A DNA stretch of 64,000 nucleotides from Escherichia coli (lineage in GTDB: Bacteria; Pseudomonadota; Gammaproteobacteria; Enterobacterales; Enterobacteriaceae), in NCBI RefSeq assembly GCF_045037415.1, contig NZ_CP173438.1; one strand, 5' to 3'. Numbering within the stretch: the first letter of the stretch is position 1; every line of letters starts with the position of its first letter. Made by a program: the position numbers. Shown here piece by piece: positions 3,001 through 9,000 of the stretch.

Positions 3001-6000
3001 TACTGAATGAAGGCGCAGATCCCTCGCGTTTTCTGTTTGTTCTCAGCCATGCCGATCGCGTGTTTCCTGCTGAAGAATGGAATGCCACAGAAAAATGCCC
3101 GTCCCGTCAGCAGGCGCTCTCACTGGCGACGGTGACAGCCCGGGTGGCAACCCTGTTCCCTTCATCATTTCCAGTACTCTCCGTTGCTGCACCTGTCGGC
3201 TGGAACCTTCCGGCGTTTGTGTCGCTGATGATCCACGCACTGCCACCACAGGCAACCAGCGCGGTGTATTCACATATCCGGGGAGAAAACCGCTCTGAAC
3301 AGGCCCGGAAACACGCACAACAGACTTTTGGTGAAACCATCGGGAAAAGTTTTGACGACGCCGTTGCCCGTTTCAGTTTTCCGGCCTGGATGTTACAGCT
3401 TCTGCGCAAAACCCGGGACCGCATTATCCACCTGCTGATCACACTGTGGGAGCGTCTGTTCTGACACACTCACGCCGACAGGATGTGTCGCTGGATTAAC
3501 GAGCATTCTTCTTTTTATGAAATCATGCTTAAAAATCAGATAATTAAAAGAATATTTTTTCTGCTGCATTTTATTCCTGATTATCCGGATGCGACACATC
3601 CTTTCAACATCATGATGCATAATAACATCATGAAATAAAAGATGTTTTCTTACGGAGTGCACATCTATGTCTGATAATCGTTCCCGGCATGATCGCCTGG
3701 CGGTTCGCTTATCACTCATTATCAGCCGACTGATGGCCGGAGAATCTCTGTCACTAAAAACACTGTCAGATGAATTTGGCGTTACAGAACGTACTTTACA
3801 GCGCGATTTTCATCAGCGTCTGGTTCACCTGGATTTAGAGTACAGAAATGGCAGGTACAGCCTCAGACGACAGAGCAGCCCAGGTGCGATCCCTGAAATG
3901 CTTTCTTTTATACAGAATACCGGGATCGCACGGATACTTCCGCTCCGGAACGGACGACTGATAACCTGTCTTACCGACAACCAGGAGCCCTCTCCCTGCC
4001 TTATCTGGCTACCGGCGCCGGATATCACTGCAACGTTCCCCGAGTGTTTCTCGCAACTCATCCTGGCAATAAGACAGTGTATCCACATCTCTCTGATGAC
4101 TGAGCGATGGTATCCGTCACTGGAGCCCTGCCGGCTCATTTATTACAGCGGTAGCTGGTATCTGATCGCGTTACAGAAGGGAAAACTGCAGGTCTTTCCT
4201 CTGGCAGATATCAAATCAGTCAGCCTGACATCAGAACGGTTTGAACGGAGAGGCCACATCCACAGTCTGGTCGCTGAAGAGCGTTTTATCTCCGCCCTGC
4301 CACATTTCTCTTTCATCCATAAACTTATCAACACCTTTAACCTGTGATCGCCGGCCTGCCAAAGCCGTCCCGACAGGTATGGAGACAATATGTTGAACAG
4401 AAAACTAAATATACGGCTACGTCATTCCCTGAACAGTCACTGCATACCTTCCATCATTATCAATAACACCGTACGTTCATTTCAGAGGTCAGTCATGAAT
4501 ACCAGAGCTCTTTTTCCCCTGCTGTTCACTGTGGCATCATTCTCCGCCTCCGCCGGCAACTGGGCTGTCAAAAACGGCTGGTGTCAGACCATGACGGAAG
4601 ATGGTCAGGCGCTGGTAATGCTGAAAAATGGCACGATTGGTATTACCGGCCTGATGCAGGGATGCCCGAATGGCGTACAGACGCTCCTGGGCAGCCGTAT
4701 CAGTATTAACGGTAACCTGATCCCCACATCACAAATGTGTAATCAGCAGACGGGATTCAGGGCTGTTGAGGTGGAAATCGGACAGGCGCCGGAAATGGTC
4801 AAAAAAGCCGTTCACTCCATAGCAGAGCGTGATGTGTCCGTTTTACAGGCATTTGGTGTACGAATGGAATTCACCCGCGGTGATATGCTGAAGGTCTGTC
4901 CGAAATTTGTCACATCACTTGCCGGTTTTTCCCCGAAACAGACGACCACTATTAATAAAGATTCCGTCCTGCAGGCAGCCCGGCAGGCATACGCCCGGGA
5001 ATATGACGAGGAAACAACAGAAACCGCTGATTTTGGCTCTTACGAAGTAAAAGGCAATAAGGTTGAGTTTGAAGTATTCAATCCTGAAGACCGTGCGTAC
5101 GACAAAGTGACCGTCACGGTTGGTGCTGACGGTAATGCCACCGGCGCCAGCGTTGAATTTATCGGAAAATAGCCGGTATGTCGGACTGCCACCCTGTTTT
5201 ATTGCCCGAAGGCCCTTTCTCACGCGAACAGGCGGTTGCCGTCACAACAGCTTACCGCAATGTGCTTATTGAAGATGACCAGGGAACGCATTTCCGGCTG
5301 GTTATCCGCAATGCCGAAGGGCAGCTACGCTGGCGGTGCTGGAATTTTGAACCTGATGCCGGAAAACAGCTAAATTCGTATCTCGCCAGTGAGGGAATTC
5401 TCAGGCAATAAACGTCTTCATTTCATCCATCAGGCCGCGTCTTCTCCGGGAGACGCGGCCTTTTCGTTTATACCGCTAATTCATTCATAAGGAGCAAAGT
5501 ATGCAATTAGCCAGTCGTTTTGGTCATGTAAATCAGATCCGTCGGGAGCGCCCACTGACACGCGAAGAACTGATGTACCACGTCCCGAGTATTTTTGGAG
5601 AAGACCGGCACACCTCCCGCAGTGAACGGTATGCGTACATTCCCACCATCACCGTCCTGGAAAATCTGCAGCGGGAAGGCTTTCAGCCGTTCTTCGCCTG
5701 CCAGACCCGTGTGCGCGACCAGAGCCGCCGGGAATATACCAAACATATGCTGCGTCGCGGCGGGCCGGACAGATAACCGGTCAGCATGTGCCTGAAATTA
5801 TTCTGCTCAACTCCCATGACGGTTCATCCAGCTACCAGATGTTACCCGGATATTTTCGTGCCATCTGCACCAATGGCTTGGTCTGCGGTCAGTCGCTGGG
5901 AGAAGTCCGGGTGCCCCACCGGGGAAACGTGGTGGACAGGGTGATTGAAGGTGCTTACGAAGTGGTGGGCGTGTTTGACCGGATTGAGGAAAAGCGTGAT

Positions 6001-9000
6001 GCCATGCAGTCGCTGGTCCTGCCGCCACCGGCACGCCAGGCGCTGGCACAGGCGGCGCTGACTTACCGTTATGGTGATGAACATCAGCCCGTCACCACTA
6101 CCGACATTCTGACGCCACGACGCCGGGAGGATTACGGTAAGGACCTGTGGAGTGCTTATCAGACCATCCAGGAAAATATGCTGAAAGGCGGGATTTCCGG
6201 TCGCAGTGCCAGAGGAAAACGTATCCATACCCGGGCCATTCACAGCATCGATACCGACATTAAGCTCAACCGGGCGTTGTGGGTGATGGCAGAAACGCTG
6301 CTGGAGAGCATGCGCTGATGCTGTTTCCCTGAAAGTGCAGCCCTGACTCACGTCTGTACCAGTCCCCATGCATTCTTCCATTCATTTACTTTTTATAAGG
6401 AATCATCTCATGACAACCTTTTCGCATAGCTCCACCACACCTTCTGTTTCCGTAACTACTGCATCAGGGAATAACCAGTCTCAACTGGTTGCCACTCCCG
6501 TCCCTGATGAACAGCGCATCAGCTTCTGGCCGCAGCACTTTGGCCTCATTCCACAGTGGGTGACCCTGGAGCCCCGTGTCTTCGGCTGGATGGACCGTCT
6601 GTGTGAAGACTACTGCGGGGGTATCTGGAATCTGTACACCCTGAACAACGGTGGCGCATTTATAGCACCTGAACCGGATGAAGATGATGGAGAAACCTGG
6701 ATACTGTTCAATGCCATGAACGGTAACCGCGCTGAAATGAGCCCGGAAGCCGCCGGCATTGCAGCCTGTCTGATGACGTACAGCCATCATGCCTGTCGTA
6801 CGGAGTGTTATGCCATGACGGTCCATTATTATCGGTTGCGGGATTACGCCCTGCAGCATCCGGAATGCAACGCCATTATGCGCATCATTGACTGAAAGGG
6901 GCTGGAACAATGCAACAGCTTTCCTTTCTGCCAGGAGAGATGACGCCCGGCGAGCGCAGCCTCATTCAGCGGGCCCTGAAAACCCTGGACCGCCATCTTC
7001 ATGAACCCGGTGTGGCCTTCACCTCCACCCGTGCGGCACGGGAATGGCTGATTCTGAACATGGCGGGACTGGAGCGTGAAGAATTCCGGGTGCTGTATCT
7101 GAACAACCAGAATAAGCTGATTGCCGGTGAAACCCTCTTCACCGGCACCATCAACCGCACGGAAGTCCATCCCCGGGAAGTGATTAAACGCGCCCTGTAC
7201 CACAATGCCGCTGCCGTGGTACTGGCGCACAATCACCCGTCCGGTGAAGTCACACCCAGCAAGGCAGACCGCCTTATCACGGAACGTCTGGTACAGGCAC
7301 TGGGCCTGGTGGATATCCGGGTGCCGGACCATCTGATAGTCGGTGGCAGCCAGGTTTTCTCCTTTGCGGAACACGGTCTGCTTTAACCCGTCACCGTTAC
7401 AACCACATCATACCTGTTTTCGCTTTTATCTTCTGTCTTCAGAGGTATCACACTATGAAAATCATCACCCGTGGTGAAGCCATGCGTATTCACCAACAAC
7501 ATCCGGCATCCCGTCTTTTTCCGTTCTGTACCGGCAAATACCGCTGGCACGGCAGCACTGAAGCGTATACCGGTCGTGAAGTGCAGGATATTCCCGGTGT
7601 GCTGGCTGTGTTTGCAGAACGCCGTAAAGACAGTTTTGGCCCGTATGTCCGGCTGATGAGCGTCACCCTGAACTGAGTCAGGAAGGGCATTCTGATGAGC
7701 CGAATTATCGCCACCATCGAACCATTCTTAACTGATTTCTGTGAGGACTTTATCGTGTCAGACACACTGCCCGGGACAACGCATCCCGACGACAATCACG
7801 ACCGCCCCTGGTGGGGGCTGCCCTGCACCGTGACGCCCTGTTTCGGGGCACGTCTGGTGCAGGAGGGTAACCGGTTGCATTACCTTGCCGACCGTGCCGG
7901 TATCAGAGGCCGGTTCAGCGACGCGGATGCATACCACCTGGACCAGGCCTTTCCGCTGCTGATGAAACAACTGGAACTCATGCTCACCAGCGGTGAACTG
8001 AATCCCCGCCATCAGCATACCATCACACTGTATGCGAAAGGGCTGACCTGCGAAGCCGATACCCTTGGCAGTTGTGGTTACGTTTATCTGGCTGTTTATC
8101 CGACACCGGCAGCGCCCGCAATCACCGTATAACCCCGGATATCTCCCCTTTATCACCACCTGTTACAGAGAACTTAAGATGAATACATTACCCGACACTC
8201 ACGTACGGGAGGCATCGGGCTGCCCGTCTCCCGTCACCATCTGGCAGACACTGCTCACCCGACTGCTGGACCAGCACTATGGCCTCACGCTGAATGACAC
8301 ACCGTTCGCTGATGAACGTGTGATTGAGCAGCATATTGAGGCAGGGATTTCACTGTGTGACGCGGTGAACTTTCTCGTTGAAAAATACGCGCTGGTACGT
8401 ACCGACCAGCCGGGATTCAGCGCAGGAGCCCCGTCGCAGTTAATCAACAGCATTGATATTCTCCGGGCTCGCAGGGCAACCGGCCTGATGACCCGGAACA
8501 ATTACAGAATGGTAAATAACATTACCCAGGGCAAGCATCCGGAGGCAAAACAATGAAACTGGCCCTGACGCTGGAAGCCGACAGCGTTAACGTGCAGGCA
8601 CTGAACATGGGGCGCATTGTCGTTGACGTCGATGGTGTTAATCTCAGTGAACTGATTAACAAGGTCTCTGAAAACGGTTATTTACTCCGCGTGGTCGATA
8701 AATCCGACCAACACGCAACCAGTACACCACCACCGTTAACAACCCTTACCTGCATACGTTGCAGCACCGCACATATCACGGAAACGGACAACGCCTGGCT
8801 GTACTCGCTGTCACACCAGACTAATGACGACGGCGAATCAGAATGGATTCATTTTACAGGCAGCGGCTATCTGTTACGTACCGATGCGTGGTCATACCCG
8901 GTTCTGCGGCTTAAGCGCCTGGGCCTGTCAAAAACGTTCCGTTGTCTGGTTGTCACACTTACCCGACGTTATGGCGTCAGTCTCATTCATCTGGATGCCA

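Follow-up and report, generated by a model that had tools for sequence, protein, structure and literature searches.

Does the 64,000-nucleotide (nt) stretch of Escherichia coli contig NZ_CP173438.1 (assembly GCF_045037415.1; hereafter the window) contain two neighbouring genes related to DUF932, or a single DUF932 gene whose reading frame has been broken? Two adjacent open reading frames (ORFs), here ORF1 and ORF2, match this protein family in different frames of the same strand, and a first-pass annotation had left it open whether they reflect a decaying island gene or a site of programmed or erroneous frameshifting. The evidence argues very strongly that the split arose through a genuine, recent and non-programmed single-base deletion, and that a known family has here acquired an ordinary young pseudogene.

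ORF1 (positions 5501-5776, plus strand, frame 2, ATG start) encodes 91 aa and ORF2 (5788-6318, plus strand, frame 1) encodes 176 aa when counted from its first GTG, as given in the ORF list. Both exceed the gathering threshold of 23 bits for the Pfam family PF06067 (DUF932): residues 37-86 of ORF1 match profile positions 2-50 with 35.4 bits, and residues 2-165 of ORF2 match profile positions 64-227 with 120.9 bits. These matches to consecutive parts of one profile bear out the first-pass annotation, which had seen in the two ORFs, in frames 2 and 1, the joint coding sequence of one protein family. In PF06067 proteins, the domain is carried by an uninterrupted chain of about 260-300 aa; in the window copy it is spread over two frames. 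A pairwise alignment with CFT073 locates the lesion, a single T lost between 5756 and 5757 (CTGCGTC[T]GCGGCGG). In megablast comparisons, the 818 nt of the window copy align to 819 nt in CFT073, 55989, THO-003 and many other genomes at 99.9% identity, with one gap as the sole difference. Since an alignment of this kind, interrupted by a single gap only, is obtained with many genomes, the neighbourhood of ORF1 and ORF2 is more than a chance juxtaposition. In a tblastn search, the intact homolog aligns with 100% identity in two stretches, its residues 1-85 corresponding to 5501-5755 (frame 2) and its residues 87-272 to 5758-6315 (frame 1). The damage is thus confined to codon 86 (CTG, Leu), and the other 271 of the 272 codons are the same as those of WP_001175163.1, the product of the intact gene. 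Because the domain is broken by a 1-nt deletion and is continuous in the intact allele and in homologs, the window copy is a pseudogene of the PF06067 family. The break had initially been placed around 5762-5790, which is correct for the neighbourhood but not for the exact site, as the lesion lies about 6 nt upstream; that range takes in the aberrant tail of ORF1 with its TAA stop (5774-5776), as well as the start codon that comes first after it.

The intact product WP_001175163.1 has 272 aa and is present on about 1000 public contigs. Its gene is annotated as a single 'DUF932 domain-containing protein' coding sequence in every top match, including CFT073, 55989 and THO-003. In these and other genomes, the allele is the same as the window copy at 818 of 818 shared nucleotides, the T of codon 86 being the only difference, and in THO-003 it occupies the same island context. 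In E. coli K-12, YfjQ (b2633, CP4-57) and YafZ (b0252, CP4-6), both DUF932 / UPF0380 proteins of cryptic prophage-like islands, are encoded by unbroken single genes of 273 aa, whereas the window copy is one base short and split. Each of the two proteins is 74% identical (88% similar) to the repaired window protein in a gapless alignment of 270-271 residues, and this full-length match at high identity places the repaired protein in the YfjQ/YafZ subfamily. The earlier description of the locus as a frameshift splitting a YafZ/YfjQ-like DUF932 gene is thereby upheld, the frameshift being the 1-nt deletion. Additionally, the intact protein is matched over residues 3-271 by PHROG 12094 (E = 1.7e-128), which is labelled 'unknown function'. 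A HMMER search against 1.84 billion cluster representatives returned 5342 relatives, from which 77 full-length sequences (37-48% identity) were aligned with the intact protein. Both halves are spanned by one protein in all 78 aligned sequences, as they are in YfjQ and YafZ of K-12, and the homologs encoded by two separate genes that would have spoken for a normally bipartite arrangement were thus not encountered. Structural relatives from phages (DUF932, DUF945 and TIGR03299), retrieved by a search of BFVD, align over about 260-290 columns. On the basis of these sequence comparisons, the view that ORF1 and ORF2 represent the two halves of one DUF932 (YfjQ/YafZ-like) gene is supported.

A different explanation for the same gap is a sequencing or assembly error, in which case the real genome would contain a T that the assembler or basecaller omitted. 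Single-base insertions or deletions (indels) are the commonest type of assembly error, and none of the 5426 complete E. coli genomes in RefSeq shows the allele: 1847 of them were matched by an 80-nt probe with the junction at its centre, all with the extra T and none with the sequence of the window. The 34-mer covering the junction likewise gave no match in JGI/ENA metagenome contigs or in GTDB representative genomes, and the intact 34-mer, used as a positive control, was recovered from 27 metagenome contigs. However, the exact 91-aa truncated product occurs on two contigs in a collection of 15 billion proteins, namely CP056492.1, a 5.24-Mb chromosome (GCA_013748665.1), and JASYRX010000134.1, a 1.6-kb draft contig (GCA_030470825.1). 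Both align gap-free to the window and hence hold the same deletion. At the position equivalent to 5173, which directly follows the stop of a hypothetical gene ending at 5172 and lies 5 nt before the DUF905 start, both contigs have a T, and the window, THO-003 and CFT073 have a C. Since this single nucleotide polymorphism (SNP) sets them apart from the window, the three carrier assemblies represent distinct isolates, and the nested pattern, with the deletion in three of three assemblies and the extra SNP in two of three, is the one that clonal descent predicts. When 50 kb are compared with THO-003, the window shows a single SNP, at 20018 inside cadA (A in the window, G in THO-003), which like that at 5173 marks a lineage, and the gap in codon 86, with no other indel, which argues against an indel-ridden source assembly; with this gap as the only exception, the first 20 kb of the window are identical to about 15 genomes. 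In addition, the deletion lies outside any homopolymeric or repetitive tract, as there is no homopolymer of four or more bases in 5700-5790 and no tandem repeat in 5400-6400. A motif-specific systematic fault would be expected to recur among the 1847 near-identical local sequences and is seen in none of them. An erroneous frameshift, as entertained by the first-pass annotation, is therefore an unlikely explanation, and there is high confidence that the T deletion is real and recent and was inherited in one clone.

The deletion also yields a weak inverted repeat (8 of 9 positions; 5725-5733 / 5755-5763, CCGCCGGGA / TCGCGGCGG) that is absent from the intact allele. It might be the trace of a template switch, with chance the more likely origin, and the repeat is too weak to claim a templated (quasi-palindrome or template-switch) formation of the deletion.

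The consequences of the lesion for the protein can be estimated from an AlphaFold2 model of the intact product, built from the 78-sequence alignment. The model predicts a single domain with a mean predicted local distance difference test (pLDDT) score of 93.9 and a predicted template modelling (pTM) score of 0.89, in which a central sheet (strands 61-68, 82-88, 96-104 and 112-120) is followed by helices. Residue 86 is located within strand 82-88 of this sheet. The near-invariant polar residues of DUF932 comprise H82, R85, R87, E99, N104, C123, N125, H140 and R208; among these, H82, R85 and R87 around the lesion, as well as E99 and N104 on the strand that follows, are kept in at least 90% of homologs. 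The 91-aa product retains H82 and R85 and none of the residues that come after. For the downstream part, candidate internal starts in frame 1 are GTG at 5788 and ATG at 5839, both without a Shine-Dalgarno sequence, and GTG at 5911, which has GGGAG 8 nt upstream. Gene callers disagree on the start in the two other carrier assemblies, where the equivalents of 5911 and 5839 were chosen. C-terminal fragments from any of these three starts would be devoid of R87, and those from the later starts would also be devoid of core strands. Since the break interrupts a core beta-strand of a single compact domain and parts near-invariant residues, the model strongly suggests that this DUF932 gene copy is inactive and represents a loss of function.

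That the split goes beyond simple decay, either because the 91-aa product and the C-terminal fragment from 5788 cooperate or because loss of DUF932 was selected in the clone, is decidedly improbable. The first of these possibilities, a functional split gene in which the N-terminal fragment and a C-terminal fragment re-initiated at GTG 5788 associate into an active protein, is very improbable when taken alone. The distance of 11 nt from the stop to the next in-frame start would be compatible with re-initiation, and both halves are otherwise free of mutations, an observation that the youth of the lesion explains equally well. Yet no Shine-Dalgarno sequence precedes 5788, residues 86-96, including the near-invariant R87, would be contained in neither piece, the cut lies inside a core beta-strand and not in a linker, and no homolog among the 78 aligned sequences is naturally split here. 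Selection for the loss of DUF932, if true, could act, for example, by relieving a cost or by lowering, through polarity, the expression of the antirestriction, RadC and CbtA/CbeA genes further downstream.

Programmed -1 frameshift sites are known, for example, from dnaX, from IS3-family transposases and from the phage tail chaperone G/GT, and the DUF932 locus resembles them in having overlapping frames that jointly code for one protein family. Here, the shift needed would indeed be -1, and since frames 2 and 1 are both open across 5626-5773, most of the full-length protein would be regained if ribosomes shifted in a programmed manner, or the polymerase slipped, near 5753-5773. Nevertheless, the known sites have a slippery heptamer, a stimulatory structure and conservation, and the DUF932 split, which shows none of these, falls outside the class. 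No X XXY YYZ slippery heptamer exists anywhere in ORF1, nor is there an A/T run on which slippage could occur. The downstream RNA (5757-5856) is no more structured than shuffled controls, as it folds at -20.2 kcal/mol compared to a shuffle mean of -24.75 (z = +1.48, that is, less stable; pseudoknot-free folding). A programmed site would also be conserved, and the two-frame arrangement occurs in 0 of the 5426 complete genomes, while all 78 aligned sequences use a single frame. With the signals missing and the arrangement not conserved, programmed frameshifting and transcriptional slippage are ruled out for practical purposes as extremely improbable, and so is the still less credible phase-variable (contingency) switching of the DUF932 gene by reversible indels, for which nothing speaks beyond the presence of an indel, in view of the lack of a simple-sequence tract at or near the site and the confinement of the allele to one clone.

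The deletion of a single base thus remains the preferred account, and the following course of events is proposed. One T was lost from codon 86 (CTG) of the DUF932 gene in the accessory module of the island, in one clone close to THO-003, and the deletion has been passed on to at least three sequenced isolates. Translation would begin normally at 5501, read 85 native codons, shift frame, add the residues RGGPDR and stop at the TAA. The remaining 186 codons, in the -1 frame and without a convincing start, would give rise to at most an N-terminally truncated fragment. Loss of this copy was probably tolerated, as E. coli genomes typically hold several DUF932 paralogs: megablast identified 12652 places in 4469 genomes, with a median of three per genome and four in THO-003. 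Through this redundancy, the mutation is plausibly neutral. Frameshifted pseudogenes are a general phenomenon in the cryptic prophages and genomic islands of E. coli, and the DUF932 lesion resembles them in that one indel disables an accessory gene that is non-essential and present in multiple copies. It differs from the typical island pseudogene in being very young, with no secondary mutations and a distribution limited to one clone. Some considerations weigh against this account. The base call is taken from assembled sequence and not from raw reads, and CP056492.1 lies outside the RefSeq complete-genome set, which also counts in favour of an assembly error. Furthermore, the proposed redundancy draws on paralog counts and not on the intactness of the other copies in the source genome, and the presumed loss of function is deduced from predicted structure and conservation only. 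The coordinates of the individual elements are compiled below.

Features of the DUF932 pseudogene and its upstream region in the window
Feature	Position	Strand	Basis
Terminator-like hairpin, 13-bp stem with 9 GC pairs, 4-nt loop, T-rich tail	5432..5471	+	consensus match only
Shine-Dalgarno-like AAGGAG, 6 nt ahead of ATG 5501	5489..5494	+	sequence reading
DUF932 (YfjQ/YafZ-like) pseudogene, 819-nt gene minus one T	5501..6318	+	alignment with CFT073, THO-003
Native codons 1-85, frame 2, unaltered	5501..5755	+	tblastn, Pfam
Deletion junction CTGCGTC^GCGGCGG, T of codon 86 gone	5756..5757	+	alignment with CFT073
Out-of-frame RGGPDR, then premature TAA (5774-5776) ending the 91-aa product	5756..5776	+	ORF list, translation
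Codons 87-272 and native TGA, frame 1, without proper start	5758..6318	+	tblastn, Pfam

The description of the locus as a decaying island gene, also put forward in the first-pass annotation, agrees with its position in the right-hand part of a pheU/cadC-side genomic island that ends beside cadC. The genes follow one another in the order GTPase, WYL/HTH regulator, hypothetical gene, DUF905, DUF932, antirestriction, RadC/JAB, DUF987, CbeA/CbtA, DUF5983, DUF957, DUF4942, EAL-domain protein, integrase remnant and cadCBA. With GTPase, antirestriction, RadC, DUF987 and CbtA/CbeA genes as neighbours in the annotated colinear stretches of THO-003 and CFT073, DUF932 belongs to a CP4-type island module. 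The modules of K-12 CP4-6 and CP4-57 hold the same gene types, including a GTPase (YfjP/YkfA-like), DUF905 (YkfF-like), an antirestriction gene (YafX-like), RadC/JAB (YkfG-like), DUF987 and a CbtA/CbeA-type toxin-antitoxin pair, although the order is slightly changed, as DUF932 in the window follows DUF905 and stands immediately before the antirestriction gene. The terminator-like hairpin, a strong one, separates the DUF905 gene from the start of DUF932, and no sigma-70-like promoter was detected in 5100-7000. Further along the island, the DUF4942 gene is interrupted by ISEc10 (IS21-like; istA/istB, about 10095-12346, minus strand), which leaves a portion at 9336-10046 and, at 12437-12598, a C-terminal remnant. 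This split is, besides the DUF932 lesion, another indication that the island is decaying. A partial, frameshifted tyrosine-recombinase (integrase) remnant at 14589-14748, just upstream of cadC, marks the island edge. Since ARAGORN identified no tRNA genes anywhere along the 64 kb, this side of the island lacks the pheU-type attachment tRNA. Outside the island, direct repeats of 324 nt (24586-24909 and 40059-40382, 98.8% identical) each lie within a GNAT (yjdJ-like) gene. They enclose a block of ~15.5 kb (about 24910-40058), positioned between ghoST/yjdJ and yjdI/dcuSR, with a 3.9-kb autotransporter gene, an AraC-family regulator, an S6-family (SPATE-type) serine peptidase and fimbrial chaperone/usher genes. 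The block looks like a small virulence-type islet with a duplicated target gene at its flanks.

Searches for the function of the DUF932 protein yielded no sequence match in the PDB and no fold match by Foldseek against the PDB (E of 0.09 or worse), and BFVD contained only the DUF932, DUF945 and TIGR03299 relatives, all of unknown function. NCBIfam gave only a sub-threshold match to TIGR03299, none of the families among the defence-related hidden Markov models of PADLOC-DB matched the intact protein, and no functional study of DUF932, yfjQ or yafZ was found in the literature. With antirestriction, RadC/JAB and a toxin-antitoxin pair as neighbours, it may be guessed from this co-location that DUF932 helps mobile elements to become established or to be maintained.

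For the annotation of this region, the result indicates that the two ORFs are to be called one frameshifted DUF932 pseudogene and not two genes. The exact 1-nt deletion additionally provides a clone-specific marker common to the window, CP056492.1 and GCA_030470825.1. The biological weight of the finding is small, since it adds one more young pseudogene, of an already known kind, to a decaying E. coli island. It is the DUF932 family, and not the broken copy, that represents a reasonable target for functional work, as it combines a confident AlphaFold model that has no counterpart among solved structures with a set of near-invariant polar residues.

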